In this document: one piece after another, positions 20,046-38,682 of the stretch
How the letters are laid out: each line of letters begins with the position of its first letter
Numbering within the stretch: the stretch's first letter is position 1
Notes under the pieces: generated by a model
What the model was told of the DNA's origin: nothing
Databases searched by the model: none
Seen by the model: only the letters and a program-made list of their open reading frames with translations
DNA from: Minisyncoccota bacterium
GTDB lineage: Bacteria > Patescibacteriota > Minisyncoccia > Phycocordibacterales > UBA2100
Length of the DNA stretch: 64,000 bases
Assembly (NCBI GenBank): GCA_035500505.1
Contig: DATJXE010000003.1
Span: 201,697 to 265,696, forward strand
Direction: 5' to 3'
Made by a program: the position numbers and the translations under genes

Positions 20046-20065
20046 TTCTCTCTAGAATTAAGCCA

Positions 20066-20100: not shown

Positions 20101-20138
20101 TCTCTTGCTAGTCCTGCGATACGGCATATAGTGAATTT

Positions 20139-20915
20139 ATGAAAGGGGTATTGTCTCCAATTGCTGCTTCGACAATCGTGCTCTTGCTTGCCTTTGCGCC
20201 ACTTTCAGCGAGTGCCGTAGTTCATGTCTCTGGATATGTAAATAGCCACGGCACTTACGTGGCTCCTTATGTGAGGAGTAATCCCAATGGTTTGAAATAC
20301 GATAATTACAGCTATACGCCTAGCCAGGGACTCTATAACCCAAGCTATGGCACAAAAGATACTGTGTGGGACACTCCAACATGGATTACAGATCCGAACT
20401 ATTATTCGGGACTGTCAGAATATCTTTCGACTCACGGTTCGTCGGGTTCCTTGGCCCCAGGTAATTACAGCGCGACATACCCAACAAATCTCTCTGTACC
20501 AGCTAATGCCACTGCATATGGTTCCACGTGGTATTGCAACAATGGCTATAAAACTATATACGACAGCTCGTACAACAAGATAGGTTGCACGCAAGTCGTC
20601 GCTCCAGCGAACGCAACGGTTTATGGCTCAGACTGGTATTGTAATACCGGATACAAAACGCAATATGATTCGTCGTTCAATAAAGTAGGTTGCACCAAAG
20701 TTGTGGCACCCGCGAACGCCTCCATCTATGGATCAGATTGGTATTGCAATACCGGTTATAAGACACAGTACGACAGCTCGTTTAATAAAATCGGCTGTGT
20801 GAAAGTTGTTGCACCACCGAATGCGACCGTTTATGGCAGTGATTGGTACTGTAATGCCGGGTATAAAACACAATATGATAATTCTTTCAATAAAATCGGA
20901 TGCATCGCAAACTAA
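20139..20915 (+). CDS. Secreted tandem-repeat protein (4 x ~40-aa Cys-containing repeats)
   Basis: Signal peptide, then four repeats 'VVAPANATVYGSDWYCNTGYKTQYDSSFNKIGC'. Markedly AT-richer than its flanks. Confidence 0.6.
   Translation: MKGVLSPIAASTIVLLLAFAPLSASAVVHVSGYVNSHGTYVAPYVRSNPNGLKYDNYSYTPSQGLYNPSYGTKDTVWDTPTWITDPNYYSGLSEYLSTHGSSGSLAPGNYSATYPTNLSVPANATAYGSTWYCNNGYKTIYDSSYNKIGCTQVVAPANATVYGSDWYCNTGYKTQYDSSFNKVGCTKVVAPANASIYGSDWYCNTGYKTQYDSSFNKIGCVKVVAPPNATVYGSDWYCNAGYKTQYDNSFNKIGCIAN
20490..20915 (+). repeat. Four tandem ~120-bp DNA repeats (coding)
   Basis: Near-identical units 'tatgg[ct]tcagactggtattgtaataccgg.tacaaaac.caatatga..cgtcgttcaataaa' read directly. Confidence 0.7.
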
Positions 20916-21004
20916 CTTAGAATACCAACTTGCGACCTCGCCATTCTGACGGAAGGGAAGTGGTGTCAGGTACCATTCTTTTTGCGCGATGATATTCTTC
21001 TGAT

Positions 21005-21400
21005 GTGAACTGGGACGAATTCGATAAGGAGATGCGCGAGCTGCAGAGCAGGATAGACTGGCGGCCGGATATTATTTGCGGGATCGCACGGGGCGGCGTG
21101 ATACCGGCGACTATTCTCTCGAAGCGAATGAAGGTAAAAGATATGTTCACGCTCTCGCTCGACAGGCAGGGCGAGCGCAAGATTTCTGCGTTCGCTATAG
21201 TCGACATTTCAGGGAAGAAAATATTGCTCGTTGAAGATATGCTCGAAACAGGTCGTGGTCTCATTGCCGGCAAGAAGTTCCTTGAAGAGCGCGGGGCGGA
21301 AGTGAGGACGGCCTGCCTCTATACGATGCCAAAATCAGAAATAGTCCCAGACTTTTTCCTGCGTCAATTTCCCGACGTCCAACATTTTCCCTGGGAGTGA
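21005..21400 (+). CDS. Small phosphoribosyltransferase-domain protein
   Basis: 'KILLVEDMLETGRGL' type I PRTase PRPP-binding motif. Only 131 aa. Confidence 0.5.
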   Translation: MNWDEFDKEMRELQSRIDWRPDIICGIARGGVIPATILSKRMKVKDMFTLSLDRQGERKISAFAIVDISGKKILLVEDMLETGRGLIAGKKFLEERGAEVRTACLYTMPKSEIVPDFFLRQFPDVQHFPWE

Positions 21401-21401
21401 T

Positions 21402-21935
21402 ATGAAGCTCGTGTTGCCCGATACGAAATATAAAGACTCGTTCATTCAGGCGGTGAAGGAGTTTCAGGGGGAGAACGATTATACGCATCGGAACCGATGG
21501 TACCGGAAATTATCGATTCTGGAACTTGAAGCGGACTTTGATGGATTCGTCGCCCGAGAGTTGAGCCATTCGCGCGGGGAGAATCTTTCCGAAGGATATG
21601 TGCCCATGACGGAGTACTGGCTTATTGATGGCAAAGAATTCATCGGGCACGCAACACTTCGTCATCGGCTCAACGATAAGTTGATGCAAATAGGCGGGCA
21701 CATCGGCTACGACATTCGACCAAGTATGCGCGGCAAGGGGTATGGCAACAAAATACTCGAACTCGCACTTAAGAAAGCAAAAGAACTTGGCATCAAGCGC
21801 GTTTTGGTAACGTCAGACGAAAGAAATATCGCCTCGCGCAAAATTATCGAAAAGAACGGCGGAGTTTTAGAGAATCAAATTCCGAATCCCGAAATGGGTT
21901 ACGACGCTCTTCGTTTCTGGATTGATATTTCCTAG
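21402..21935 (+). CDS. GNAT family N-acetyltransferase
   Basis: 'RGKGYGNKILELALKKAKELGIKRVLVTSDERNIASRKIIEKNGG' acetyl-CoA-binding motif A/B. Confidence 0.55.
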   Translation: MKLVLPDTKYKDSFIQAVKEFQGENDYTHRNRWYRKLSILELEADFDGFVARELSHSRGENLSEGYVPMTEYWLIDGKEFIGHATLRHRLNDKLMQIGGHIGYDIRPSMRGKGYGNKILELALKKAKELGIKRVLVTSDERNIASRKIIEKNGGVLENQIPNPEMGYDALRFWIDIS

Positions 21936-21937
21936 TT

Positions 21938-22480
21938 ATGGAGTCACAAACCGTTATAAGGTTTTGGTTCGAGGAGGCGACGCCTTCGCAGTGGTTCCGA
22001 AAGGATGAGAAATTTGATGCGGAGATCCGGCGGCGGTTTTTGGATGTTTACGAGGGCGCGATGAAAGGGGAGTTGGCCGATTGGCGGAAGTCGCCCGAGG
22101 GGCGGCTGGCAGAAATTATCGTGCTCGATCAGTTCCCGCGCAATATGTTCCGGAATTCACCGCAGGCCTTTGCGGGGGATGCGCTTGCGCTCAAGTTCGT
22201 GCAAGACGCCATCGCCGCAGGGGACGACAAAAAACTTTCTGTTCGTATGCGCCGTTTTCTCTACATGCCCTACATGCACAGCGAATCACGCGACGCGCAC
22301 AAAAAAGCACTCCGGCTTTTCTTTTCACTCCTCCCATCACAGTGGGCGGCCTTCAAATTCGAATGGAAGCACAAGCGCATCATTGATAGATTCGGCCGTT
22401 ACCCGAGCCGCAACGCAATTTTGAGGCGCGAGAGCACGCCGGCGGAAACAGAGTTCCTCAAAACACACAAGGGATTTTGA
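21938..22480 (+). CDS. DUF924 family protein
   Basis: 'IRFWFEE...QWF.KDEKFDAEIRRRF' and 'IIVLDQFPRNMFR...AFAGDALAL' match my recollection of the DUF924 consensus. Confidence 0.45.
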   Translation: MESQTVIRFWFEEATPSQWFRKDEKFDAEIRRRFLDVYEGAMKGELADWRKSPEGRLAEIIVLDQFPRNMFRNSPQAFAGDALALKFVQDAIAAGDDKKLSVRMRRFLYMPYMHSESRDAHKKALRLFFSLLPSQWAAFKFEWKHKRIIDRFGRYPSRNAILRRESTPAETEFLKTHKGF

Positions 22481-22580
22481 ATCGCGGGTGAGTTTGACAG
22501 GAACGTTGCGGTTGATGATAGTGGGGGCCGCTTCAACCCAGCTCTTTGATGTACGAAGAGCCCAACAGAAGGGGACGGTC

Positions 22581-23261
22581 ATGAGCAAGGTCATGGCAAC
22601 AGTCGTTGCGTTTTTCGGGGCGCTCATGCTTGCGACGCCGGTTCGCGCGGTTGAGTGCGTCGACCACGTCTCAAACGTGCTGAAGGATTCCGACATCAGG
22701 GCGCTCGATCTGACCGAACGTGTCAACGAGTTCTCAAAGGCGATGCAGGTTGTTTCTCAAAGAAGCCCGAACCGTATCGCCATCGACATCGTCGTGCGCG
22801 ATTGTCCGTACTACGGCACCCTCAACTCATTCTTCTCGTTCGCTGAAATGCCGGCGATAGGCATTCCGCGGACATACTCGGTGCATATCACGGCTGCGCG
22901 CCTCCGCAACACCGAAGATACACAACTGCTTCGCGATGCGCGCCGAGAAGCATGCGTCATCGTCTCCGGCATTCTGGATATGCCACAAGCATCCCCGCCG
23001 GCACAAGGGGAAGAGTCACCTGCCGTCGTCAGGTGCATGATCCAGGAATCCGTGCGTGCGAACGACATACAGTATGCGGAGTGGCTCGCACGGACGCACC
23101 ACGCGGAGGTACCGCAGCTACAGGCGGAAGTCAGCCCGCCGCAGGCGGAGATCGACCGGGCTATCGAGCAACTCAAGGATATTGGCGCTCCTCCCGGCAT
23201 GCTCGACTCATTGGAGAAACTCAAGCGTTCCTTCGACGACTTTCCTCCACGCTCCCGCTGA
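22581..23261 (+). CDS. Hypothetical secreted protein
   Basis: Signal peptide 'MSKVMATVVAFFGALMLATPVRA'. No motif recognised. Confidence 0.4.
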   Translation: MSKVMATVVAFFGALMLATPVRAVECVDHVSNVLKDSDIRALDLTERVNEFSKAMQVVSQRSPNRIAIDIVVRDCPYYGTLNSFFSFAEMPAIGIPRTYSVHITAARLRNTEDTQLLRDARREACVIVSGILDMPQASPPAQGEESPAVVRCMIQESVRANDIQYAEWLARTHHAEVPQLQAEVSPPQAEIDRAIEQLKDIGAPPGMLDSLEKLKRSFDDFPPRSR

Positions 23262-23385
23262 AGAGCGTGGATGTCCGGATCTTTGCCGCGCGGGTGACCG
23301 CGCGGTATTTTTTATATTCAATAACTTTGTGGGCAAATGAGAAGGCCGCGAGAGGGCGGCCCTCTGCGCGGCGTTGGTCGTGCGG

Positions 23386-23775
23386 TCAGCCGACGACTTT
23401 TTCGACGGTACTGAGCGCGAGCCGGAGATCGTCCATGTCCCCGCTCGTCATGAGCTCCTTCAGGCTCCTGCGGCCGAGCTCATTGTGCTTCACATTGATC
23501 CACCGCTCCGTTGCGTCGTTGTTTTCCTCGTTCGCGCCAAAGACCGCATCGAGCATGAATTTCAGCCTGACGATAACTTCAGCGCGGACAAGAACATCGC
23601 GACTCTTGGCGAGCCAGCTCCGCAGGCTATTGGTATCGGTTACGACCTCCGGTTCGAACCCGAATGATCGGGCTTGTTCCTGCAACGTGAAGGCGAGATC
23701 TTGAAGTGCCTTCAGAGCTTTCTCAGTTTTCTCGGGCAATGCAATCGTCCGATTCTCCTGCGCAACGCTTGTCAT
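23386..23775 (-). CDS. DUF2384 (Xre/MbcA/ParS-like antitoxin toxin-binding domain) protein, no adjacent RES toxin
   Basis: C-terminal 'DAVFGANEENNDATERWINVKHNELGRRSLKELMTSGDMDDLRLALSTVEKV' resembles the DUF2384 consensus. Confidence 0.35.
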   Translation of the reverse strand: MTSVAQENRTIALPEKTEKALKALQDLAFTLQEQARSFGFEPEVVTDTNSLRSWLAKSRDVLVRAEVIVRLKFMLDAVFGANEENNDATERWINVKHNELGRRSLKELMTSGDMDDLRLALSTVEKVVG

Positions 23776-23918
23776 AGCCGTCTCCCGACCAGTGTGCGAT
23801 ACGGCGTACCGCTTCCTATGCCGTAGGCTAGTACGGAACGGTGCAAGGGTCAATAAATAGGTTTTTCATGATAAGAGGCTTATACTTGCAGACTATTAAG
23901 AGGTAATTTCGTAAGCAT

Positions 23919-24248
23919 ATGAAAAAGTTTTTTGTTTTGTATAAGGCCCCTATTGAAGAGTTCACGGCGGCGATGAAAAAGATGACGCCGGAAGACCAGC
24001 AGAAAAGTAAGGCGGAGTGGCAGGAATGGATGACGAAGCACAAAGCAGATACCGTTGATATGGGCGCGCCGGTGGGGAAGACCAAGGCGGTTACTCGCAC
24101 GGGTACGAGTGACATCAAGAACGACATTGGCGGCTACTCTATTGTGCAGGCAGAATCGCACGATGCGGCAACGAAGATCTTCACCGACAGCCCGCACCTC
24201 AAGCGCATGAACGGTTCCATCGAGGTGATGGAGATTATGGAAATGTAG
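23919..24248 (+). CDS. Hypothetical protein (AT-rich gene)
   Basis: 109 aa with no motif recognised. Confidence 0.35.
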   Translation: MKKFFVLYKAPIEEFTAAMKKMTPEDQQKSKAEWQEWMTKHKADTVDMGAPVGKTKAVTRTGTSDIKNDIGGYSIVQAESHDAATKIFTDSPHLKRMNGSIEVMEIMEM

Positions 24249-24264
24249 GTGCTACAATGGGCCT

Positions 24265-24426
24265 ATGCCCCGGATCAAAATAGAGAACCACATGTTCTCC
24301 GGCGGGATTTGGTTCGCCGCCTGGCTTTTCACCATCGGATTCTTGAAGCTCTCCTTCTGGAGCGCCGTCCTCGCGATACTCATCTGGCCCTACTATATCG
24401 GCGCGGCATTCGCGCTGATGCATTGA
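24265..24426 (+). CDS. Small two-TM membrane protein (53 aa)
   Basis: TGCTACAAT lies 6 nt upstream of ATG. 'GIWFAAWLFTIGF...SAVLAILIWPYYIGAAFAL'. Below the ORF-track cutoff. Confidence 0.3.
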   Translation: MPRIKIENHMFSGGIWFAAWLFTIGFLKLSFWSAVLAILIWPYYIGAAFALMH

Positions 24427-24478
24427 GCAAGGCAAATGTTGCGTTTTTTAGAGGAGTAGTGCATACTCTGCGGGTTCT

Positions 24479-24847
24479 ATGACAGCGGAAAAGACGGCAA
24501 CCAAGAAACCTCGCACCTCGCGTGCGAAGAAAGAGGCTGGCCCCAGTCGGCTGCGCATTCGCGTGCGTGCCTACGAGCACGGCGTCTTGGACCGCTCCGT
24601 CAAGCAGATAATCGACACGGCGGCCCGCTACAACGCCAAGGTCGTTGGCCCTGTTCCGCTCCCCATCGATATAAAAAAGTACACCGTCAATCGCGCCGCA
24701 TTTATAGATAAAGACTCGCGCGAGCAATTTGAGATGCGCATCCACAAGCGCATGATAGACATTTTGAATCCCGAGGCGAAGGTCATCGAGGCCCTCACCA
24801 ACATTGATCTTCCTTCAGGCGTCAACATCGACGTGAAGATGATGTAA
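24479..24847 (+). CDS. rpsJ: 30S ribosomal protein S10
   Basis: 'RIRVRAYEHGVLDRSVKQIIDTAARYNAKVVGPVPLP...FEMRIHKRMIDI'. N-terminal Lys/Arg-rich extension. Isolated from the rest of the S10 operon. Confidence 0.85.
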   Translation: MTAEKTATKKPRTSRAKKEAGPSRLRIRVRAYEHGVLDRSVKQIIDTAARYNAKVVGPVPLPIDIKKYTVNRAAFIDKDSREQFEMRIHKRMIDILNPEAKVIEALTNIDLPSGVNIDVKMM

Positions 24848-24947
24848 GTAAACAGGCCAATCTTGACCAGATTGCCTATCATGGTATAATCCCCTTAGTC
24901 TTCGGAACGAGGTCGACCTCGTAGCCCCGGAGCGTTGGAGTAATCCG

Positions 24948-25190
24948 ATGGAAAAGATCGTTTTGGCCGTTTTTGCGGCCATGCTTGCCGTCGCGCCAGC
25001 GTCGGCGGCGTCGCGCTTTACGTCGGAATCGACGTCGGCGTATGCGGAGGCTTATCCGCCTCAGCCCCAGAGTCTCACCGGTAAGTGTAATCAGTGGGCG
25101 GGCGGGGTGTACAACCCCAGCATCCACAAATGGGTTATCACGAGCCGGTACCAGATGCTCCGGAAGTTGGCCTGTCCGTACTACAAATAG
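24948..25190 (+). CDS. Small secreted peptide (80-aa precursor, 2 Cys in mature part)
   Basis: Sec signal 'MEKIVLAVFAAMLAVAPASAAS'. TGGTATAAT promoter and a 16-nt palindromic 5'UTR hairpin (acgaggtcgacctcgt) lie upstream. Confidence 0.5.
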   Translation: MEKIVLAVFAAMLAVAPASAASRFTSESTSAYAEAYPPQPQSLTGKCNQWAGGVYNPSIHKWVITSRYQMLRKLACPYYK

Positions 25191-25268
25191 CGGCAGACCT
25201 GGAGACACTGCTGGAAGACGAATTTAGGCGGCCACATTGGCCGCCTTTTCATATGCGATGGTTCCCGA

Positions 25269-26657
25269 ATGGGATTCTTGTATAATCGTGCTGTGTCCGT
25301 CGCCCGTCGTTTTACGTTTGAATCATACTCGCTCGACACCGATCAGTCCGTAATCACGTTCACCTACCTGGTCGAATTTGAAGGCGGACACCAAGCGCGA
25401 TATGACGATCGGCTCGAATTTCCTGGCACCACGCGGACGATGTGGGAGCGTATTCCAAAGCCTGTTCTTTCGCAACTACTGCAAAGTCTGACCATACTGC
25501 ACGGCAGCGCGTATTGGAAACTCGATCATGCGGGAGAACTTGTCATCAGAGGATTTAGCCTGACTCGCGCGCAAGCAGATTTTTGGAATGAGGTGTATAC
25601 GAAGGGATTCGGGGAATTCTTTTATAGATCAAACATAGACCACAGAGGGCTGGTTTCCTTCCCATACCGCACTCGGTGGTGGTCAGGCCCGTTGTCAACA
25701 AGATTCAAACGTTCCCCACGCACCCTTCTCCTCAACGGCGGCGGCAAGGATACGGTCGTCTCCGCGGAAATGCTCAAAGAGGCCAGCATCGGCTTCGATC
25801 TGTTCACGTTGGCGAATGTTGGCGCAAAGAAGCGCGTCGCGGAGCACATCGGAACAAGGAACATCACGGTGAAACGCAGGGTCGATCCGGCAGCAGCGAG
25901 GACCGCACAGAGAATGAATGTCGCGCCCGGCGGACTTTTTACACTCACGCTCGGATTCCAGGCGCTCCTTGCGGCCACACTGTGGGACTATCGGTATGTT
26001 GTCTTCTCGAACGAGCAAAGCGCCGACATTGGCAACACCAAGTATCTCGGTCTTGACGTGAATCACCAGTGGACCAAGTCGAGGGAAGCGGAAGAACTCA
26101 CCCGGAAGTACGTGCGAACGTTCATCACGCCCGACGTGGAAGTTTTTTCGCTTTTGCGCCAATTCACCGAGATTGAAACGACGCGCCGCTTCAGCCTATA
26201 TTCGAAGTATTTCGATGCATTCTGCAGTTGCAACATGAATTCTCACGTGTCTCCTGACGAACAAGAAAACGCCCCGCGTTCCGGTTGGTGCGGCAAGTGC
26301 GCGAAGTGCATTTTCATATTTGCAGGTCTCACGGCGTTTTTACCGAAGGAGACGGTTGTCGGTATTTTCGGGCGCAACTTGTATCAAGATACGGCGCTGT
26401 TACCGGTGTTCAGGCAACTGCTCGGGCTGCAAGGCATCAAGCCATTCGAATGCGTGGGCACCTCCGAAGAAATGCTCGTCGCGATGCACCGAGCGGCGCA
26501 AACCGGTTTGTACGATACCGATCCCGCCATGGACATGTTCCTCAAAGAGATTCCACGGACAATACCATTCGATGATATAGAACACCGCGTCCTTTCCACT
26601 CACGGAGAGTCGACCGTTCCGACGGAGTTCAAGGCCATGATGGGCCTCGTCTCATGA
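25269..26657 (+). CDS. PP-loop-like ATP pyrophosphatase superfamily protein with C-terminal CxxC motif
   Basis: 'LLLNGGGKDTVVS' resembles an SGGxDS PP-loop. 'GWCGKCAKC' resembles the QueC-type zinc motif. The true start may be internal. Confidence 0.4.
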   Translation: MGFLYNRAVSVARRFTFESYSLDTDQSVITFTYLVEFEGGHQARYDDRLEFPGTTRTMWERIPKPVLSQLLQSLTILHGSAYWKLDHAGELVIRGFSLTRAQADFWNEVYTKGFGEFFYRSNIDHRGLVSFPYRTRWWSGPLSTRFKRSPRTLLLNGGGKDTVVSAEMLKEASIGFDLFTLANVGAKKRVAEHIGTRNITVKRRVDPAAARTAQRMNVAPGGLFTLTLGFQALLAATLWDYRYVVFSNEQSADIGNTKYLGLDVNHQWTKSREAEELTRKYVRTFITPDVEVFSLLRQFTEIETTRRFSLYSKYFDAFCSCNMNSHVSPDEQENAPRSGWCGKCAKCIFIFAGLTAFLPKETVVGIFGRNLYQDTALLPVFRQLLGLQGIKPFECVGTSEEMLVAMHRAAQTGLYDTDPAMDMFLKEIPRTIPFDDIEHRVLSTHGESTVPTEFKAMMGLVS

Positions 26658-26755
26658 GCCACACGAGCATTGCTTTTCTGTGTTTCGTGGCGCACAGTGG
26701 GTGCGGGCAGATTGCGGATGAACATGAACGCTGCCGCAGGTGGAGGATATAGAAA

Positions 26756-27211: not shown

Positions 27212-27268
27212 GTTCGAAAACACCACGCAAAAAGAAGGGCCGCCCTGCAAGGCGGTCCTTTATTTTTT

Positions 27269-27838: not shown

Positions 27839-27952
27839 ACTATATAATTTTTTTATGACAGCTTTCAGGGGTGGGAGTGCGTGCGAAATTGACTTCCTGT
27901 GGGTAAAACGTACAATGTGAGTTCATCAACTGTCCTGTGAAGGAGAAGAGCG

Positions 27953-28162: not shown

Positions 28163-28185
28163 AGCACGAAGGGCGCGTCGGATGA

Positions 28186-28218
28186 AGGGGGTTGGGCGTT
28201 GCTCAGCCCCCATCTTTT
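28186..28218. terminator. Hairpin + T-run between convergent genes
   Basis: ggggg-ttgggcgttgctcag-ccccc-atctttt. Confidence 0.4.
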
Positions 28219-31639: not shown

Positions 31640-31644
31640 GTGAT

Positions 31645-32388
31645 TCAATCGTGTACCTCTTGTAGGGAGCTCCTGGTGTCTTCTCCTCGGCACAGGATGA
31701 TCGAGAGGACTGGCTGCTCGAGCCGTTCGTCTATGTCGAGCAGAGATAGAGCAACTTCGTCAGAAAACCCGATGACAGGGCGCGCACCAATCTCGCACGC
31801 AGAAGCCGCGAGCAGGATATTTTCCGATAAATGTCCCGCTTCAAGTAGCGCCAGCATATAGGCGAAATCGCCGTACTTTGCGGACGAACGTTCCCACACA
31901 CTCGTGAAGAGGACGATTGAGGAAGCGGCGGGCGCCTCTGGGGCGCGTACCAGATCACTCATCGAAAAGTCAGTTGGAACGTCCCAGAGCCGCTCGAGCG
32001 CATGTTCGGTCGGATGATAATGGAACACCCCCGAGCCCGCCCCTTCGATCCCTCTGGAAACGATGTACGTTTCGATCGGAAAAAGCGCGCCGCCGGAAGG
32101 ATATCGACGCCGCACCGAACCATCGTGTCGCCGCAGCCCCGAAAACACTGCTCCCAGATCGTCAGTGGAAAGCGGTCCTTCGTTGCGCAGTTCGAGAAAG
32201 GAGCGTCTGTGGCGAAGCGCCTGAGAAAGCGGAGTTTGTAGCTCCGTTCGCGGCAAGACGAACTGCTGCATGCGAGGGTATTCTTTATGCAAACCCCTCG
32301 GGACGTCCTTCGGGTCGTGCGTTGCCCCGCGTCTAGTAAGGCGAGCGCGCCGCAAGTCGCCGTGGAGATCTGAAAGAAAAAAAGTCAT
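31645..32388 (-). CDS. SagB-type (TOMM/McbC-like) nitroreductase-fold dehydrogenase
   Basis: 'LRHRRSFLEL', 'YPSGGALFPIETYI', 'SIVLFTSVWERSSAKYGDFAYMLALLEAGHLSENILLAASACEIGARPVIGF'. Confidence 0.7.
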   Translation of the reverse strand: MTFFLSDLHGDLRRARLTRRGATHDPKDVPRGLHKEYPRMQQFVLPRTELQTPLSQALRHRRSFLELRNEGPLSTDDLGAVFSGLRRHDGSVRRRYPSGGALFPIETYIVSRGIEGAGSGVFHYHPTEHALERLWDVPTDFSMSDLVRAPEAPAASSIVLFTSVWERSSAKYGDFAYMLALLEAGHLSENILLAASACEIGARPVIGFSDEVALSLLDIDERLEQPVLSIILCRGEDTRSSLQEVHD

Positions 32389-32389
32389 A

Positions 32390-33823
32390 TCAACAGAATG
32401 GGTGCGGTCGTTCGACGAATGGTTGTTCTAAAGGTTCGTAGCCGAACAGGCGGGGGACAAGTTGAAGCCGTTCTCCCCCGAGATGTCGCATCCGCTCGGC
32501 AAGGTGTGTTGGATGCAAATCAGGCATAAGGATCATTTCGATGTGCCACGGGGTCGGATTCGCCTTAGAGGAGGTCAAGGGTACCGAAACACACTCATAA
32601 CCTTTTTCTCGGCACCAATTCTCGATCCGTTCCAACTGCATCTGCGGTGTGTCGTCTTCCCAGGCCGCCCGAACGGGGTCTTTCTCTTCCCCAGAGACTA
32701 GGAACTCAAGATGGCGTGCATGTTCGGGGTCTTGCCAGTAATGCACGCGACCTCGGTGGCCGATATCGTCGACCGGTTTTGATGGGTCATAAAACTCGTC
32801 GGGATCGGCCTTGCGCGTAAAGCGTCGCGCACGCAATGCTTCCAAGATTGCTTTTTCGGAAGCATCCGCAAGTGAGCGGTGTGCCTTAAGCCCGAAGGCG
32901 AAACGAGGACCGACCGGACTAGGGTCCTCAAGGATCGCACAAACGGCATGTGTCGGTGCATCAGTAAGCATTGTGATGATGTGTACGCGTAGGCCGTAGC
33001 GTTCGCAGCGAGAAATGATAGCGTCGAGTGTCTTTGATCGTGTTCGTAGCGAAGAGGGGTGTATGCGCGGCAGTGAAAGCTGATTAAACCACATGATCAT
33101 ATACGATTCTCGTTCGATACACTCAAGCGCCCCGGCGAGCCGCGCGCCGATCCTTGTCGGCCATGTCGCAAGTCCTGTGGTATGTTGCATTCGTATCAGC
33201 GGTTCCTGAGGAGATACTTTAAATGGACCCCACGCCGCACTAACAGTTTGCGCCGGCACGTAGATTTTTTTACCGCTTACGAGTGATGTCCCTTCAATCC
33301 ATAGATACGATGCTTCGGGAGGGAGGCGAAACTGTGACGATTGCAGGCGTTGTGCCTCTGAAAAAGAAACGAATTGATGTGGAGCGATGATAGGGAAGCG
33401 AGCTCGCATTTCGTCAATCGTGCCGCGTCGCGGACGGACGAAGTAATCGCGCTGTGTCCACCAAATGTAACGTTCAAGGCCTTCTGCGAGCGCTGCAAAG
33501 AGAGCAGACGTATCGTTGTCGACCGACGAACCGCCGGCGAAGTTTTCCGCGGAGTCTCTCACTCGACAGATCCAGTGTCGCACTCCTGGTTCATCTGGCA
33601 ATCCTTCCGTAGGACCGTACCAGCTCACGACGCCCCGGTCGATGAGCTTCGTCGCGACAGACAATGGTTCTGCTAGGTCAGCGCGACCGAACGGCACGCG
33701 CCTTTTATCGTACAGCACGGTGACGCCGAGCCTTCGCTCAATGAATTCGAGGAAAGAAACTATGGCTCGTCGCCCCCGATTTTCTTGAGCGACGTCATCA
33801 AACCGCACTCCGTCGATGAGCAT
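32390..33823 (-). CDS. ycaO: YcaO-domain ATP-dependent cyclodehydratase
   Basis: 'AGGSSVDNDTSALFAALAEGLERY' and 'TTGLATWPTRIGARLAGALECIERESYMIMW' YcaO signatures. Pro-rich C-terminus 'ERPHPFC'. Confidence 0.8.
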   Translation of the reverse strand: MLIDGVRFDDVAQENRGRRAIVSFLEFIERRLGVTVLYDKRRVPFGRADLAEPLSVATKLIDRGVVSWYGPTEGLPDEPGVRHWICRVRDSAENFAGGSSVDNDTSALFAALAEGLERYIWWTQRDYFVRPRRGTIDEMRARFPIIAPHQFVSFSEAQRLQSSQFRLPPEASYLWIEGTSLVSGKKIYVPAQTVSAAWGPFKVSPQEPLIRMQHTTGLATWPTRIGARLAGALECIERESYMIMWFNQLSLPRIHPSSLRTRSKTLDAIISRCERYGLRVHIITMLTDAPTHAVCAILEDPSPVGPRFAFGLKAHRSLADASEKAILEALRARRFTRKADPDEFYDPSKPVDDIGHRGRVHYWQDPEHARHLEFLVSGEEKDPVRAAWEDDTPQMQLERIENWCREKGYECVSVPLTSSKANPTPWHIEMILMPDLHPTHLAERMRHLGGERLQLVPRLFGYEPLEQPFVERPHPFC

Positions 33824-33928
33824 TCCGCGATTCTAGCACAAGGGCCATTCCACAGCCTGCCGCTTGGGTTACTGCAAAGTATCCACACGCCATGCGACTC
33901 AGCGGCAAGTACCTGGTACTATGGGTGC

Positions 33929-34234
33929 ATGCGTTCTGCCAATAAGAATACTCGGGGTCTCTTGCGGAAGATCTTTCTCTCCGCGACGATCGTATTCGGT
34001 TTTCTATCTATCATATTTTCAAGGGATTTTGGTGGAGCATCACGCCTGCTTTTCAGGGAACGGGACAACGGGATAGCGCATGCCGACGCGCCGAGTAGCG
34101 GCGGGGGCGGAGACGGGGGTGGAGGCGGCTCTGGCGATGCTCCCAGTTGCAACTACGGTGACGCCGGCAGTGGGTGCTCAGATTGCGGAGCCGATAGTGC
34201 GAGCGCGGACGCAGGCGGGGGCGATGCAGGGTAA
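33929..34234 (+). CDS. Candidate RiPP precursor: hydrophobic leader + Gly/Ser/Cys/Asp-rich C-terminal core
   Basis: Divergent from ycaO in a ~430-nt intergenic gap. Core 'DAPSSGGGGDGGGGGSGDAPSCNYGDAGSGCSDCGADSASADAGGGDAG'. Could instead be a chance ORF in G-rich DNA. Confidence 0.35.
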   Translation: MRSANKNTRGLLRKIFLSATIVFGFLSIIFSRDFGGASRLLFRERDNGIAHADAPSSGGGGDGGGGGSGDAPSCNYGDAGSGCSDCGADSASADAGGGDAG

Positions 34235-34254
34235 ACAACCCAGTAAATTTTTGT

Positions 34255-35400
34255 ATGAGCAAGACAACGGGAATAGCGATTGTAGGAATGGTGGTGGCGG
34301 TTCTGCTCGCTATAATTGCCGTCGTATTCCTGTATGAACAAAATTTTGTTGCACAGCCTTCTCACCCTTCAAACCAGGACCTCTGGTATGAAACCCTGCA
34401 GGACAATCCAGCGTTCGCACTTGCGCTCCAAGAAGAAGGACAAGGCGACTACGGCGCAGGCGCCGAGAGTGTAAAGCAGGCGCTTGCTTCAGCGGCAAAG
34501 TCCGACCAGATGCAGTTGCTTGCGGTGTATCTCGGGGTGGCGTATGGATACGCCGGGGACTACCAAAACGCCGTCACTCAGCTGGAACAAGTGGTTGCGA
34601 CGAACTCGGATACTCCGGATACACGTGCTTTTGCGGCCGAGCAACTAGCTCTTGCGTACTCGCGCAATCCGGCCGCGAACTCCGTGTTAGCAATGTTACA
34701 GCAACCCGCATATAAGAGTCTGTACGTAGCGACCAGCACAAATCTAACGGCGCGAGGACTCTTTCTGTATGCGACCGCGATCAAGCCGTTGCCACTTTCC
34801 GAATACAACATTGCGAACACGTTCGCTACCTCCATTTTCAACCAAAGCCTGGTTGGCACCACTTCTCCTGCCGGCAAGGCACAATTCGCATCCCTTGAAC
34901 AGAAGTTGAAGAACCGACTGCTTGCCGGGGATGCGGCTCTTGCCACGCTCGACCAGGTTCCTTATCCGAGTTATGAACCCGAAGCTCAGGCGTTGAAGGC
35001 TCTCGTTCTCGGAAAGCTTCAAATCATGGGCGACACAAGTTTGGGTGATGCTAGTCAGGCATACACAACTGCACTCGCAAGCTATGCGCTCCAGGGTGCC
35101 CAAGATGGACAAGTTCGCATATGGTATGCATCGTTCCTAGCGGCTGCTTACGGGACGTCGCGCCTCGCGGACATAGAATCTGTTCTCGCTCCGATTTATC
35201 AAGACCCGACGCACCGCGGCGTAACCGTGGTTTCCACCTTGCAATCGTATGTGGGTGCGCTCAATTCAAGCTCGAAACGAAGTCTTGCAACGCTCGCAGC
35301 CATCGACCCTCAGTTCAGGACATTTCTACAATCCTTAGGGTGGACGGCTAAGGATTTTTCAGCGACAATCGTTCAGACTTCGACAACGACGACAAAATAG
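34255..35400 (+). CDS. Hypothetical membrane-anchored Ala-rich protein
   Basis: N-terminal TM 'IAIVGMVVAVLLAIIAVVFLY', then a 350-aa Ala/Leu/Gln-rich extracytoplasmic domain. Confidence 0.45.
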   Translation: MSKTTGIAIVGMVVAVLLAIIAVVFLYEQNFVAQPSHPSNQDLWYETLQDNPAFALALQEEGQGDYGAGAESVKQALASAAKSDQMQLLAVYLGVAYGYAGDYQNAVTQLEQVVATNSDTPDTRAFAAEQLALAYSRNPAANSVLAMLQQPAYKSLYVATSTNLTARGLFLYATAIKPLPLSEYNIANTFATSIFNQSLVGTTSPAGKAQFASLEQKLKNRLLAGDAALATLDQVPYPSYEPEAQALKALVLGKLQIMGDTSLGDASQAYTTALASYALQGAQDGQVRIWYASFLAAAYGTSRLADIESVLAPIYQDPTHRGVTVVSTLQSYVGALNSSSKRSLATLAAIDPQFRTFLQSLGWTAKDFSATIVQTSTTTTK

Positions 35401-35402
35401 GC

Positions 35403-36209
35403 ATGGCGGCCGTGTCGACCGATCGACTGTTCTATCCGGCGTGGGCGATCGTGATCGCACTCGCGCTCTTTTTTTTGGCGCCTGAAGCGCACACGTTCGC
35501 GACGAATGTCTACGAGGACATGGCTTACGCGGTCGATCCCTCGGCGTCCCGGGCCTTCGCTTACGGAGAGCGACATTTCGATGCGACGAACCCGAGCGAG
35601 TATGACCTCGATCGTGCCGAGTATTTTTTCACTCTCGCGGCGAAGAAAGATCCGTCGACTCCCTATCTCTATCATGAACTGGCGCGCATTTCTTTTTTGC
35701 GCGGCGACTATAAGCAGGCACTGGCGAGGATCGACTTCCAGATAATGCTTCACGGTGACTCCGAGCCGAATTCCTATTACGTGCGCGGGCTCATTGAGGG
35801 ATACATGCGCGATTATGGAGACGCCATAACTGACTACACGCATTTCCTGCTGTTCGACCCCAACGACTGGGCCGCCATTAATGATGATGCGTGGGTCTTA
35901 CTCAAGGCGGGACGTTTTCAAGAAGCGGCCGATCTCACGACCAAAGGCCTGAAGATATATCCGGAGAATCCGTGGCTTCTCAACTCGAACGCGACCGCGC
36001 TTTATGAGTTGGGCCTCTACCAGCCTGCCCTTGCTGCTGCCGAAAAAGCCGAGGCTGCTGTAGCTACCGTCACGGATTCCGAGTGGTCACATGCCTATCC
36101 CGGCAACGACCCAACCATCGCGGGGGAAGGCGTCGCCTCCTTTAGGCAAGCCGTGGCTGACAATGTGCACACCATCCAACTGGCGCTTGCCACGAGTACG
36201 GTACAATGA
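35403..36209 (+). CDS. TPR-repeat protein with N-terminal TM anchor
   Basis: Several 34-aa TPR-like repeats ('YYVRGLIEGYMRDYGDAITDYTHFLLFDPND', etc.). Confidence 0.6.
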   Translation: MAAVSTDRLFYPAWAIVIALALFFLAPEAHTFATNVYEDMAYAVDPSASRAFAYGERHFDATNPSEYDLDRAEYFFTLAAKKDPSTPYLYHELARISFLRGDYKQALARIDFQIMLHGDSEPNSYYVRGLIEGYMRDYGDAITDYTHFLLFDPNDWAAINDDAWVLLKAGRFQEAADLTTKGLKIYPENPWLLNSNATALYELGLYQPALAAAEKAEAAVATVTDSEWSHAYPGNDPTIAGEGVASFRQAVADNVHTIQLALATSTVQ

Positions 36210-36220
36210 CGTAAAACCCT

Positions 36221-37933
36221 ATGAGCGGACAGAGTCATGCGCAAACGTTCGATATAAAGAGGTATGTTGCGTACGCATTTGCTCTCGCGATAGTCGCGCT
36301 GCTTATAGCCGGAGCATCGAGTCACGCGGCCGGCCACCTCTCGCCTGAAGTGAAATTCACCGATGCCTCCGGGGGCGGCCTCGCCATCGTGCCGGCGTCA
36401 TGCCCTTCCGACCCGCAATACCTTGGGGACTGCACAACTTCGTGCGACAACGGCCTCGACATCGCGCAATATCCTTCTTGCAGCTGCCCCGCCGGCCAAA
36501 CGCAAAGCGGAAGCACGTGCGTGTGCCCCTCGGGCCAGGTGTGGAACGGTACGCAATGCGTTTCGCAGACCGTGGGACCGAGTTGTACATGTCCGAGTGG
36601 ATATACGTTGAACGGCTCGACCTGTGCCGCAAACCCCGGCAGTCAGTCCTTTACGACCCCCACCCCCCCGGGAGGTACCACGTTCTCGGTGCCGCAAAAC
36701 TACGCATCTCTCACCGTAACCGTTCTGGGAGCAGGTGGTGGTGGTGGCGGCGGGGGTGGACCCATGTACTTCAACCCGACGAATGGCTGGATAAGCGGCC
36801 AGCCTGGAAGTTCGGGCGGGTCGGGCACTTCTTCTTCCTTCAATACGTCCGTCGTGGCTAACGGTGGCGGTGGTGGTGGCGGTGGTGGCGCGGGAAACGT
36901 GAACATAAGTGACGCTGGAGACTTTGGCACCAACGGAAGTCCTGGCTCGGACGGTTCCTCCGGGACTGCGAGCGGGGGCACTACCAACACAACAGGCGGA
37001 GGGGCATCCGGCGGCTCCGGCGGTCCTGGCTCGTCTTATACGAGCGACAGCGGCTCGGTCTCGGACTGGGGTGGCACCGGTGGAACCGGTGGCACGGGCG
37101 GTAAAGCAGTGAAAACCTATGCCTCGGGGGTGCTCACAGGGAACATCACAGTGACCGTGGGCTCCGGCGGCTCCGGCGGAGGCGGTCAACCATATGGCGG
37201 AAGCTCGGGCGGCAATGGCTCGGTGTCCATTACGTGGACGACCTCTTCCGACATCTCGGCGTCTTGCTCCTGCCCCAGCGGATACACCGACCAGGGCGGC
37301 GGTTCATGTGTTCTCTCACAATGCACAGGAGGAGAACTCCTTCAGGGCGGTTCCTGTGTTCCGACCTGTGGCATCGGATACACACAACAAGATTCCAGTT
37401 GTGTATTCGACCAGTGCCCCATCGGCTACGTGCAGGGGGCTGACAGCAATGGCAACACGACCTGCACCTTCTCCAGTTGCCCGGTCGGCTACACACAGCA
37501 AGGTCAACAGTGTGTCTTCACGAGTTGTCCTCTGGGCTACACGCAAGGAACCGATGCGAACAACAACGCCATCTGCACCTACACCGGTTGCCCGCGGTAC
37601 TACACGCTCCAGGATGGGCAATGTGTGCTCTCCACCCAGTCATCGCCTCTTGGGGAGATCGTCGCAGTCCCGTCGGTACTCAAGACAGGTGGCACATCCA
37701 AGATTTCCTGGAGTGCCGGCGGTGTCTCTTCCTGTACGGTTACCGGTTCCAATGGGGACGGCGGCTCGGGCTGGGGCTGCTCATCACAGATCGCTTGTGC
37801 TGCCACCACGACTCACCCAACGAGCCAAATACAATCGCAGACAATTTACACGCTCAATTGTACGGCCCTCGACAGCAGCACCTTCACTCGCTCCGCGACG
37901 GTGAATATCGTGCCGGTATTCCAGGAACAGTAA
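36221..37933 (+). CDS. Large surface protein: ~12 'CPxGYTxxGxxCV' Cys-hairpin repeats flanking a glycine-rich (Gly_rich-like) core
   Basis: Repeats such as 'SCPVGYTQQGQQCVFTSCPLGYTQGTD'. Core 'VTVLGAGGGGGGGGG...ITVTVGSGGSGGGG'. N-terminal TM/signal present. Confidence 0.55.
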   Translation: MSGQSHAQTFDIKRYVAYAFALAIVALLIAGASSHAAGHLSPEVKFTDASGGGLAIVPASCPSDPQYLGDCTTSCDNGLDIAQYPSCSCPAGQTQSGSTCVCPSGQVWNGTQCVSQTVGPSCTCPSGYTLNGSTCAANPGSQSFTTPTPPGGTTFSVPQNYASLTVTVLGAGGGGGGGGGPMYFNPTNGWISGQPGSSGGSGTSSSFNTSVVANGGGGGGGGGAGNVNISDAGDFGTNGSPGSDGSSGTASGGTTNTTGGGASGGSGGPGSSYTSDSGSVSDWGGTGGTGGTGGKAVKTYASGVLTGNITVTVGSGGSGGGGQPYGGSSGGNGSVSITWTTSSDISASCSCPSGYTDQGGGSCVLSQCTGGELLQGGSCVPTCGIGYTQQDSSCVFDQCPIGYVQGADSNGNTTCTFSSCPVGYTQQGQQCVFTSCPLGYTQGTDANNNAICTYTGCPRYYTLQDGQCVLSTQSSPLGEIVAVPSVLKTGGTSKISWSAGGVSSCTVTGSNGDGGSGWGCSSQIACAATTTHPTSQIQSQTIYTLNCTALDSSTFTRSATVNIVPVFQEQ

Positions 37934-37982
37934 GCGTGGGGAAAAACGTCCGCGCCGCCTGGCTCGATGCTATAGTTGTTGC

Positions 37983-38429
37983 ATGCAGAGAGTTTCTCTC
38001 CGGACGTTCGCTTTCCCGCTGGCCCTTGCGGTTGCGATAGTTTCGGCAAGCGCGGCGTTTGCGTATGCGCAGACCACAACCGACGCGCAACTTCGCGCGA
38101 CCATCCAGGCCGAAGTGACGGCCGATCCGCGTTCGCAAACGATGTCGCAGGCGCAGATACAAGCGCTTGTCGACTCGCTCACCGCCCAGGCACAGGCGCA
38201 AGGCCTCACGGCTTCGCAGCTCACCTATCGTGCGCCCACCCAAACTCCGGAGACTTCCTTGCCCGCGCCGAGTTCGCAGTGCACGACGTTCTCCTGTTCG
38301 CTCGCCCGCGCGTTCGGGCTCGACGGCTCCGTTCCCATCATCCCCATTGCGCTTTTTGTGGCGGCGGCACTCTTCATTCTTCTTTTCAGCATCATGCGCG
38401 AGTTAGGGCATCCGCACGCACAGGCTTAG
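37983..38429 (+). CDS. Hypothetical secreted protein with C-terminal TM anchor
   Basis: Signal 'AFPLALAVAIVSASAAFAYA'. C-terminal 'IIPIALFVAAALFILLF'. Confidence 0.4.
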   Translation: MQRVSLRTFAFPLALAVAIVSASAAFAYAQTTTDAQLRATIQAEVTADPRSQTMSQAQIQALVDSLTAQAQAQGLTASQLTYRAPTQTPETSLPAPSSQCTTFSCSLARAFGLDGSVPIIPIALFVAAALFILLFSIMRELGHPHAQA

Positions 38430-38434
38430 AGCGT

Positions 38435-38562
38435 GCGGCGAAGCAGCATGAGTTTTTGAATATCTCGGCTTTGCCACCGTTCTCTTTCTCTGTGCCGGAC
38501 TCTGCCGCAAGAAAACCATTTTGGAAAAATGTGGTAAACAAAAACTCATGCTGCTTCGCCGC
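38435..38562. repeat. Perfect 24-bp inverted repeat (arms 38435-38458, 38539-38562; 80-nt spacer)
   Basis: gcggcgaagcagcatgagtttttg / caaaaactcatgctgcttcgccgc. It starts 6 nt after a stop codon, upstream of the rplC operon. Confidence 0.85.
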
Positions 38563-38639
38563 ATAGCGGCATAGTTGCACGCCTTCTTTTTTCGTATATA
38601 GTGCTTCCACCCAAGTCCGTATATGGACCAATGGTGAGC

Positions 38640-38682
38640 TTCAAAAGCCCGCCATTGCGGGCGTTCACATTTTTAGGATATG
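38640..38682 (+). promoter_or_regulatory. Leader hairpin + U-tract + SD before rplC
   Basis: gcccgc-cattg-gcgggc-gttcacattttt-AGGAT-ATG. Confidence 0.35.

Follow-up and report, generated by a model that had tools for sequence, protein, structure and literature searches.

Insertions into the translation-gene cluster, and an S10 gene separate from its usual partners, are already known from lineages other than the one treated here (PMC6735719, PMC8046335, PMC10833476). In this cluster, insertions between operons are described as leading on to a progressive disconnection (PMC8046335, PMC6735719), and in Archaea uS10 is always separate from the uL3 cluster (uL3-uL4-uL23-uL2) (PMC10833476). The window analyzed here is a stretch of 64,000 nt from a Minisyncoccota bacterium (assembly GCA_035500505.1, contig DATJXE010000003.1, positions 201,697 to 265,696, forward strand), in which tuf, rpsJ and rplC are pulled apart over 18.5 kb. 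A first-pass annotation had read the intervening DNA as an accessory, probably horizontally acquired island. With a probability of about 0.8, the break is a trait long inherited within the lineage, built round a conserved gene cluster of the type that makes peptides of the linear azol(in)e-containing class (LAPs), and not one mobile island, two old transcription-unit boundaries having been filled.

The insertions described by Brandis in 2019 and 2021 (PMC6735719, PMC8046335) resemble this locus in that the flanking ribosomal units are collinear, co-oriented and intact, the inserted DNA lies at terminator/promoter boundaries (here predicted ones) and is passed down in a clade, and the distance within the pair goes on growing after the first insertion (>10 kb), with no sign of long-distance transfer. 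Duplication was proposed there as a route, and a partial rpsJ duplicate is present in one relative of the window. Those insertions split tuf from rpsJ (bfd-bfr, ilv-leu), whereas here the older and larger break is rpsJ-rplC, inside the classical S10 operon; the window cluster is also broken at rpsG-fusA, fusA-tuf, rplB-rpsS and rplE-rpsN, and its lineage, the candidate phyla radiation (CPR), was not covered by those studies. The inserted gene cluster is itself of an already known kind, since LAP clusters with YcaO and a nitroreductase are reported from 51 Parcubacteria genomes (Sharrar et al. 2020, PMC7298704); the passages of that paper picked out by a term search say nothing of a fixed address between rpsJ and rplC.

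Organization of the cluster

The open reading frame (ORF) list, with Pfam and NCBIfam, gives the canonical order rpsL, rpsG, fusA, tuf, rpsJ, rplC-rplB and onward through rplO and secY, all on the + strand. The framework features are as follows.

15963-18104, +, fusA (Pfam)
18846-20045, +, tuf (EF-Tu), final gene of the str-type unit (Pfam GTP_EFTU, D2 and D3 domains)
20066-20093, both strands, G+C-rich bidirectional terminator-like hairpin 3' of tuf (terminator scan, 12-14 pairs)
24479-24847, +, rpsJ (ribosomal protein S10/NusE; Pfam Ribosomal_S10, E 7e-31)
38680-41214, +, rplC-rplD-rplW-rplB, start of an 'S10 operon without S10' (Pfam; rplC at 38680-39285)

The first-pass coordinates and identities of tuf (end at 20045), rpsJ and rplC (start at 38680) hold by Pfam, and the tuf terminator that it placed at one end of the region corresponds to the hairpin at 20066-20093. 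The total break from tuf to rplC is made up of a tuf-rpsJ gap of 4433 bp and a rpsJ-rplC gap of 13832 bp. About 23 credible non-ribosomal genes lie between tuf and rplC, fewer than the roughly 28 first counted, several long ORFs being antisense artefacts. One such ORF, 26629-27294 (-), was rejected as a gene; it overlaps the cupin gene at 26756-27211 (+).

The product of rpsJ has a basic N-terminal extension of about 20 aa. Described at first as stranded alone, rpsJ is the sole ribosomal gene in the region but has co-directional small genes on both sides, namely a 44-codon ORF (24292-24426) upstream and an 80-aa ORF (24948-25190) and a MurL-like gene (25269-26657) downstream.

Gene-cluster junctions in related genomes

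The comparison set consisted of the 80 best rpsJ relatives among species-representative genomes (63-91% identical to the rpsJ of the window), onto whose rpsJ loci the window proteins were mapped. All 80 are CPR metagenome-assembled genomes (Kaiserbacteria, Paceibacterota, Parcubacteria, Nomurabacteria and some labelled Saccharibacteria), which places the window in a Kaiserbacteria-like Paceibacterota, one of the ultra-small CPR bacteria. An exact match to the rpsJ of the window was found only on a 512-bp contig. A metagenome scan with the YcaO alignment added 45 loci, relatedness was judged from an EF-Tu neighbour-joining tree and identities, and junction statistics were taken from 56 loci outside the clade of the window. 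Individual loci are cited by their L numbers.

In those 56 loci rpsJ is held close to tuf (median distance 38 bp, with none of the 56 above 300 bp). The rpsJ-rplC distance has a median of 452 bp and exceeds 300 bp in 55% and 1 kb in 36% of the loci; 13 further loci have no rplC within at least 5 kb of rpsJ. The fusA-tuf and rpsG-fusA distances exceed 300 bp in 87% and 55%, respectively, and rpsL-rpsG and rplC through rplB are tight in every case. The gaps within rplC-rplD-rplW-rplB measure 3-11 bp in the window and 6-27 bp (median) in relatives. The statement that tuf-rpsJ-rplC adjacency is nearly universal is therefore too strong, given these rpsJ-rplC distances and the archaeal separation of uS10.

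From the tight and loose junctions it follows that the units of the class are rpsL-rpsG, fusA, tuf-rpsJ and rplC onward, with rplC at the head of an operon of its own. This comparison shows the first step of the history proposed here, a cluster made up of these units, with rpsJ travelling with tuf as it does in Archaea. The S10 gene comes after the EF-1alpha/tuf gene in the str-type clusters of Archaea and cyanobacteria. The likeness to the archaeal arrangement lies in the joining of rpsJ to tuf in the sampled Paceibacteria and in a separate unit opened by rplC with its own predicted promoter and leader; the differences are that tuf and rpsJ of the window are apart too, leaving rpsJ on its own, and that rpsJ and rplC are still adjacent in about 40% of Paceibacteria loci.

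The contents of the rpsJ-rplC gap in distant Paceibacteria are heterogeneous, mostly unrelated and often secreted proteins, and include a reverse-transcriptase-like gene, methyltransferases and a pirin. As they are mostly unrelated singletons, there is no single class-wide conserved 'extra gene'. The translation-gene cluster of the lineage is generally porous, and because this cluster, the most conserved in bacteria and serving CPR genomes as a set of phylogenetic markers, is routinely broken at defined junctions in a major CPR class, 'broken synteny' there should not be read as an island or a mis-assembly.

Conserved gene order between rpsJ and rplC

In relatives of the window the rpsJ-rplC gap has a recurrent content, which in the window itself is as follows.

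28217-30044, -, conserved pair g28217 (370 aa) and g29313 (243 aa), at the third AT-rich block of the first-pass annotation
30020-31693, -, fusion of an N-terminal phosphoribosyltransferase-like domain and a PQQ/BamB-type beta-propeller (Pfam, NCBIfam)
31645-32388, -, SagB-type FMN-dependent peptide dehydrogenase (TIGR03605, 103 bits against a cut-off of 78.4; Pfam Nitroreductase)
32390-33823, -, YcaO cyclodehydratase, azoline-forming type (Pfam YcaO, E 5e-40)
33929-34234, +, candidate LAP precursor (basic N-terminus, hydrophobic helix, IAHADAP motif, 46-aa Gly/Ser/Asp/Cys-rich tail)
from 34255, +, g34255, 381 aa, membrane-anchored or secreted, homologues in the same order upstream of rplC
35403-36209, +, TPR protein, membrane-anchored or secreted, same-order homologues
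36221-37933, +, g36221, Gly-rich protein, membrane-anchored or secreted, same-order homologues
37983-38429, +, g37983, protein with two transmembrane (TM) helices and a His-rich tail, same-order homologues

Five of five context look-ups (queries P0006, P0033, P0069, P0100 and P0020) returned a common gene order from the rpsJ side to the rplC side: rpsJ (often with the MurL-like gene), variable genes, g28217/g29313 in some, then the beta-propeller gene, SagB and YcaO, followed divergently by the small ORF, g34255, the TPR protein, a variable large protein, a g37983-like protein and rplC-rplD-rplW-rplB. Four of the five include rplC, whereas L085 has another YcaO-SagB pair where rplC would stand. 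Loci that show both rpsJ and rplC have them about 13-14 kb apart, as in the window. YcaO relatives of at least 39% identity whose upstream flank reaches 8 kb or more came to 15 distinct contigs; rplC is found 4-9 kb upstream in 13 of these, and rpsJ lies on the opposite side of the module wherever the flank is long enough to reach it. The synteny extends to independent genomes in which YcaO identity is as low as 39-65%.

The order g34255, TPR, Gly-rich and two-TM protein upstream of rplC is repeated in L082-L084, L086, L089, L091, L101 and others, and syntenic orthologues of g28217/g29313 (33-53% identity) occur in L004, L005, L010, L089, L101, L105, L122 and L124. Within the wider clade, only the g37983 family is constant in the gap. 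Its members consist, by alignment, of a signal or TM helix, a ATIRAAILSDPRS…WRP domain, a second TM helix and the His-rich tail, and in most of them the gene lies directly 5' of rplC. It does so in L012 and in L016, where it is the sole gene between rpsJ and rplC, and it is found in the rpsJ-rplC interval in L018.

As the source is a metagenome-assembled genome, non-ribosomal DNA might have been mis-joined to ribosomal fragments in assembly or binning. The module order was, however, found on JGI contigs of 330, 445 and 462 kb, on NCBI contigs of 226 and 460 kb and on the complete 859-kb chromosome CP066682. Mis-assembly is ruled out because these contigs come from independent samples and assemblers, and such a chimera, already refuted, is left with next to no probability.

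Promoters and the rplC leader

24439-24467, +, predicted rpsJ promoter (TTGCGT, 17 nt, TG-CATACT), conserved upstream of rpsJ
38575-38602, +, predicted promoter of the rplC operon (TTGCAC, 16 nt, TATAGT), conserved in relatives
38608-11 with 38633-36, +, leader helix P0 (CACC with GGTG), conserved structure
38615-18 with 38625-28, +, leader helix P1 (GTCC with GGAC), conserved structure
38647-38662, +, terminator-like hairpin of the leader, then a T-run, ending before the rplC start (region to 38679)

The predicted rplC leader consists of a short outer helix, an internal loop with a CCAAUGG box, a hairpin and, immediately ahead of the start codon, a G+C-rich hairpin with a U-run. The CCAAUGG box is able to pair alternatively with CCAUUG of the terminator hairpin. 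A similar leader precedes rplC in many Paceibacteria with an open rpsJ-rplC junction, and lies directly 5' of rplC in L012, L016, L018, L022, L023, L025, L028, L034, L042, L046, L047, L050, L051, L054, L063-L065, L069, L074, L076, L082, L083 and L086. RNAalifold gave eight pairs, and compensatory changes are present in four. With 15 seed sequences, a covariance model had 25 matches in 1.35 Mb, of which 24 were directly upstream of rplC on the same strand, non-seed loci included. Paired leader cells amounted to 95%, against 77% in shuffles and 28-55% in slid controls, an excess that only leans in favour of structure because the alignment was fitted to the model. Rfam gave no match to the leader at its gathering threshold, and relaxing the limit to E 10 brought up nothing beyond microRNA/lncRNA noise.

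The leader is thus a candidate Paceibacteria-specific autoregulatory attenuator responding to a ribosomal protein, perhaps uL4 or uL3. It is reminiscent of the L4-responsive attenuator of the Escherichia coli S10 operon (PMC3616713) in that both form the leader of an L4-encoding operon, with one hairpin upstream of a terminator hairpin and its U-run, and in the potential alternative pairing. There is no sequence or Rfam similarity between the two, the Paceibacteria element precedes rplC and not rpsJ, and the E. coli element is restricted to Gammaproteobacteria. With a promoter and an attenuator-like leader belonging to the rplC operon itself, DNA placed between rpsJ and rplC would for that reason be harmless to ribosomal gene expression. 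As a candidate ribosomal-protein leader RNA outside Rfam, the element may, together with the precursor family treated below, outweigh the 'island' itself in worth.

A promoter-like element of its own had also been noted for rpsJ, and a near-identical string (TTGCGT/TTGCAT ... GTGCATACTC ... GTTC ... ATG) is indeed found 5' of rpsJ in about 15 related genomes. It reads TTGCGT/TTGCAT, 17 nt, TG-CATACT and then C..C.GGTTC..ATG. As the ATG of rpsJ stands 11 nt past the -10 box, a dedicated, nearly leaderless promoter is implied. Both rpsJ (24439-24481) and g20139, the first gene after tuf (20105-20141), start only about 7-11 nt past a -10-like hexamer, which suggests leaderless or nearly leaderless mRNAs in this organism.

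The YcaO/SagB gene cluster and its candidate precursor

The YcaO protein scored 177 bits against TIGR03604 (SagD), below the cut-off of 219. Its AlphaFold model has a pLDDT of 93, and the best fold match in the PDB was the heterocyclase LynD (E 3e-23, TM-score 0.71), ahead of thioamidating YcaO proteins, E. coli YcaO and McbD. The alignment shows an invariant C-terminal PHPF/Y motif together with Glu motifs, and the N-terminal domain (about 100 aa) is conserved and was modelled well. Full-length homologues (43-65% identity) numbered more than 120, the named ones all from CPR, and the protein itself is identical to an NCBI entry of a 'Candidatus Paceibacterota bacterium'. SagB adjoins YcaO in nearly all related loci, and the phosphoribosyltransferase/beta-propeller fusion, as the third conserved gene of the module, stands beside SagB-YcaO in most of them. 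No ThiF/E1 or RiPP recognition element (RRE) family match (RiPP: peptide made by the ribosome and modified after translation), no peptidase and no exporter was recognized among the module proteins with Pfam and NCBIfam.

A small precursor-like protein is encoded divergently from YcaO in 29 of 31 related loci, the homologous ORFs lying in L082-L124. In this family a basic N-terminus is followed by a hydrophobic helix (typically VVGFFxxLF), after which come a linker, a near-invariant [AV]HA[DE]xP motif and a hypervariable tail. The tails average 44 aa, with 14 Gly, 9.9 Ser+Thr, 4.9 Cys, 6.7 Asp+Glu and 0.3 Lys+Arg, and 24 of 27 contain Cys. No Pfam or NCBIfam family covers the ORF at 33929-34234 or its homologues. 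To judge from this layout, the small divergent ORF is likely the precursor of a LAP (thiazole/oxazole-modified microcin, TOMM) with a leader-plus-core design. ATP-dependent cyclodehydration by YcaO and FMN-dependent oxidation by SagB would then turn Cys, Ser and Thr of the tail into azol(in)es, and the AHADAP motif would mark the junction between leader and core.

With LAP/TOMM clusters, including those of CPR and the microcin B17 synthetase McbBCD, the module shares a YcaO cyclodehydratase beside a SagB/McbC-type dehydrogenase and a neighbouring small ORF whose predicted product is conserved in its N-terminal part and has a variable Gly/Ser/Cys-rich tail. It differs in the absence of a recognizable E1-like/RRE partner, peptidase and exporter, in the phosphoribosyltransferase/beta-propeller fusion as a constant third gene, in a leader with a hydrophobic helix and an AHADAP junction motif, and in its acidic cores. 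The fixed address between rpsJ and rplC, the constant fusion gene and the AHADAP precursor family were not found described. They give a little-studied LAP cluster, with a precursor family outside Pfam and NCBIfam, a fixed and easily located address.

YcaO and SagB might instead modify a cellular protein, for example a ribosomal protein or a membrane-anchored small protein serving as a permanent surface component, so that no peptide natural product would be made. JGI names many of the YcaO homologues 'ribosomal protein S12 methylthiotransferase accessory factor', the annotation of E. coli YcaO, but this name is an automatic transfer, and the azoline-forming LynD is a better fold match than E. 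coli YcaO. The candidate substrate does have a transmembrane-like helix, and no peptidase or exporter was recognized; on the other hand, SagB scores above its curated cut-off and is always adjacent, and a small ORF with a conserved leader and a hypervariable Cys/Ser/Gly core is typical of RiPP precursors. Modification of a cellular protein is accordingly regarded as highly improbable.

The position of the LAP module could itself be held by selection, either because read-through or a common growth-rate control ties its expression to the ribosomal operon, or because a ribosome-targeting product is inherited together with its target genes. While the genes from rpsJ up to the module turn over, the module itself stays linked to rpsJ and rplC, although a low rearrangement rate at a site flanked by essential genes could explain this as well. 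The precursor, g34255, TPR and g37983 genes are co-directional with rplC and directly upstream of it, but a conserved promoter and leader belonging to rplC itself lie downstream of the module. The genes for uL4 and uL22 lie just downstream, and the LAPs klebsazolicin and phazolicin bind the ribosomal exit tunnel, phazolicin contacting the uL4/uL22 loops (PMC7136475); the cores encoded here are anionic, with almost no Lys or Arg, whereas phazolicin has positively charged residues (PMC7136475), and the uL4 loop carries no module-specific substitutions. Selection on the position is unlikely. Producer immunity via uL4 was rejected, the uL4 loop being identical in module-bearing and module-free genomes.

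That a functional tie holds an azole-peptide cluster in place between rpsJ and the rplC operon throughout a CPR subclade is quite unlikely. If it were so, the product, or a membrane-tethered azole-modified protein, might be made in step with ribosome synthesis and serve the epibiotic lifestyle, or a ribosome-targeting product might be inherited alongside the genes for its target; the tie and the unannotated rplC leader would then together amount to a CPR-specific regulatory and biosynthetic unit within a core translation locus.

Some loci have additional genes at the module. L085, L097, L100 and L105 have a second, more divergent YcaO-SagB pair beside the first. An extra protein of about 400-470 aa is encoded between SagB and the beta-propeller gene, or just after the latter, in L084, L086, L011, L013 and L004, and L084 and L086 also encode an extra protein of about 65 aa in one of these positions.

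The tuf-rpsJ gap

In the EF-Tu tree the window groups with L002-L005, L007, L008, L012, L014 and L017, and in every member of this group tuf and rpsJ are separated, by 491-7533 bp. The content of the gap is poorly shared among them, and its length also varies. L106, whose EF-Tu is 92% identical, has fusA-tuf-rpsJ adjacent (tuf-rpsJ about 96 bp) and the LAP module between rpsJ and rplC; in L109/L020 (EF-Tu 81% identical) fusA-tuf-rpsJ are likewise adjacent. Since these loci retain the adjacency, the tuf-rpsJ break is younger than the rpsJ-rplC break and limited to a sub-lineage. In the window the gap contains the following.

20139-20915, +, g20139, secreted Cys-containing repeat protein (three tandem 105-nt repeats; outlier in G+C content at third codon positions, GC3)
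21005-21400, +, phosphoribosyltransferase, first of a tightly packed trio (Pfam/NCBIfam)
21402-21935, +, GNAT acetyltransferase, second of the trio (Pfam/NCBIfam)
21938-22480, +, DUF924 protein, third of the trio (Pfam/NCBIfam)
22581-23261, +, g22581, secreted protein with a signal-peptide-like N-terminus; homologue between tuf and rpsJ in L010
23284-23307, terminator-like hairpin after g22581 (terminator scan)
23386-23853, -, 155-aa ORF (ORF list)
23919-24248, +, YCII-domain protein (Pfam YCII, E 4e-6)
24292-24426, +, putative 44-codon hydrophobic two-helix ORF directly 5' of rpsJ, read from the sequence

The named homologues of g20139 are all CPR proteins, and the closest is found in another genomic context, adjoining a Prim-Pol/AAA_25 gene; for these reasons g20139 may be a recent arrival from the CPR gene pool. 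Its three tandem repeats (20498-20904) are 70-72% identical and code for a Cys-containing unit of 35 aa (…YGSDWYCNTGYKTQYDSSFNKIGC…). Members of the family occur widely in CPR, some of them as fusions to peptidoglycan-binding domains.

Of the remaining genes, GNAT has a homologue near rpsJ in L009, L086 has DUF924, GNAT and YCII homologues there, and YCII homologues lie upstream of rpsJ in L013, L017, L085 and L086. A role of the GNAT protein as a ribosomal-protein acetyltransferase was rejected, as only weak generic GNAT matches were obtained (RimI at E 0.0036, far below the cut-off). The 155-aa ORF had no family match (Pfam, NCBIfam, PHROGs, PADLOC) and no homologue in the fetched loci, and the 44-codon ORF had no family match in profile searches.

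Composition and marks of mobility

The blocks called AT-rich in the first-pass annotation (20139-20915, 23820-24260 and 28217-29330) do have a lower G+C content, though only modestly so (0.449, 0.490 and 0.486, respectively, against 0.558 for the window). The GC3 background was 0.675 +/- 0.063 (26 genes); g20139, with 0.448, is the only clear outlier, and the YcaO block is 1-2 standard deviations (SD) low. Orthologues of g28217 are also slightly under the G+C content of their own loci. Tetranucleotide distances, suggested as a check on the island, stay within about 1.5 SD except in the 3-kb window at 27-30 kb (+1.6 SD) and at 35-39 kb; the deviation is mild at 20-23 kb and 26-31 kb and larger at 35-39 kb, where it coincides with the Gly-rich low-complexity gene. 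Composition is thus not atypical across the region.

As in the first-pass annotation, no integrase or transposase was seen, nor a recombinase, in the ORFs of 20046-38679 (Pfam, NCBIfam, PHROGs, PADLOC). PHROGs and PADLOC returned nothing meaningful as to phage or defence content, the region has no real tRNA gene (the sole ARAGORN call lies outside it, antisense in rpsL), and there are no flanking direct repeats (att) and no remnants of tuf, rpsJ or rplC inside it.

The far border of the region had been placed at a perfect inverted repeat of 24 bp.

38434-38458 and 38539-38563, perfect inverted repeat with 25-nt arms and an 80-nt loop (100% complementary; zero expected by chance)

The repeat is real, and lies between the g37983 stop codon (38429) and the rplC promoter in a spacer whose folding z-score is -6.0, but it is not a shared boundary. 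No other copy was found in the window, the 81 loci or the JGI metagenome scan, and no comparable repeat in the equivalent spacer of any relative checked (L012, L016, L018, L082, L084 and L086). Single in copy and absent from the spacer of relatives, 38434-38563 was rejected as an island border or a miniature inverted-repeat transposable element; it is a genome-specific hairpin inside an old spacer. One may guess at a terminator or transcriptional insulator, or at an RNase III site.

Genes were inserted into the tuf-rpsJ-rplC run at some past time, as first proposed; it is their recent arrival, as one or a few mobile segments in the window genome or its immediate ancestors, that is in doubt. 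The proposed synteny comparison shows a rpsJ-rplC order conserved in independent genomes, which speaks against an island for about three quarters of the region, and a variable tuf-rpsJ part, which speaks for it. Differing gap length and content among clade members, the GC3 of g20139 with its closest homologue near a Prim-Pol/AAA_25 gene elsewhere, and the mild tetranucleotide deviations would all suit a recent acquisition. Yet the content and order between rpsJ and rplC are kept in many independent genomes down to about 40% YcaO identity, so that absence from the same site in relatives, by which an integrative island is recognized, was not found for that part. Integrase, transposase, tRNA gene and flanking repeats are missing, the homologues are CPR proteins, and composition is native except in g20139: the block at 28217-29330 encodes a conserved syntenic gene with the same slight bias in its orthologues, and the deviation at 35-39 kb falls on the Gly-rich gene. 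For 24848-38679 the recent-island view is largely refuted, and for the region as a whole it is very unlikely.

Proposed history of the split

Starting from the units inferred above, comparison shows a second step in which a LAP-type YcaO/SagB cluster became fixed at the rpsJ-rplC boundary early in a large subclade, with vertical inheritance since; L106 and L109, with intact fusA-tuf-rpsJ and the LAP insertion only, exemplify this state. In a third step, again shown by comparison, tuf and rpsJ were separated later in the sub-lineage of the window, rpsJ acquiring or keeping its strongly conserved, nearly leaderless promoter. The tuf-rpsJ gap and the stretch from rpsJ to the module were then turned over with native CPR genes (MurL-like, cupin, GNAT, DUF924, YCII, small secreted proteins). 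Entry of these genes may have been by duplication or illegitimate recombination at terminator-promoter junctions rather than by site-specific integration. In L008 (11886-12161) a second copy of the last approximately 140 bp of rpsJ lies 1.9 kb downstream of the intact gene; it is about 91% identical in nucleotide sequence and extends exactly to the stop codon. This fragment is the footprint expected of the duplication route and fits the duplication-and-loss route proposed in PMC8046335. The resulting series, from intact tuf-rpsJ with the module to split tuf-rpsJ, is datable and usable for studying the dismantling of essential operons.

Several points weigh against this history of an old, inherited break. 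The relatives were picked by similarity to the rpsJ and YcaO of the window, so the sample is neither random nor phylogenetically balanced, and relatedness follows an EF-Tu neighbour-joining tree and identities in place of a genome phylogeny. With flanks of at most 10 kb, the position of rplC in many clade members is only '>10 kb away'. The promoters, terminators and leader are sequence predictions. The GC3 of the YcaO block (0.54-0.60, 1-2 SD under the background) leaves room for an old transfer into the ancestor. On the side of the LAP assignment, the module is without a recognized E1-like/RRE partner, peptidase or exporter, and RiPP precursors do not usually have a hydrophobic helix such as that of the proposed leader.

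Further features of the window

Between rpsJ and the conserved pair g28217/g29313 lie two small self-contained units and three larger genes.

24863-24890, +, promoter-like site of the first small self-contained unit (11/12 matches)
24948-25190, +, 80-aa secreted-protein ORF of the first unit
25226-25246, +, terminator-like hairpin of the first unit (terminator scan)
25269-26657, +, MurL-like protein (UDP-MurNAc-L-Ala-L-Glu epimerase family), housekeeping cell-wall gene (NCBIfam NF041275, E 2e-77, below the equivalog cut-off)
26756-27211, +, cupin protein (Pfam Cupin_2, E 1e-11)
27269-27838, +, g27269, weakly AAA_33-like protein (Pfam AAA_33, E 0.019)
27889-28211, +, second small unit, with a promoter-like site, a 69-aa Cys-rich secreted-protein ORF (27953-28162) and a terminator-like hairpin

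A homologue of the MurL-like gene stands directly 3' of rpsJ in L013, L082, L083 and L091, and homologues of g27269 occur in L005, L011, L015, L089 and L106.

The call made by ARAGORN outside the region, a 98-nt tRNA-Phe at 14476-14573 (-) antisense to the rpsL coding sequence and without an Rfam tRNA there, is most likely a false positive. Further along, rplO directly follows rpsE with no L30 gene between them (47616-48704); the absence of L30 is a known trait of CPR bacteria. The cluster has further breaks: a DoxX-family membrane protein gene (15360-15902, +) stands between rpsG and fusA, a 150-aa ORF (18161-18613, -) separates fusA from tuf, and gaps of about 0.6-0.7 kb at rplB-rpsS and rplE-rpsN contain minus-strand ORFs (41264-41674 and 45394-45921, respectively).

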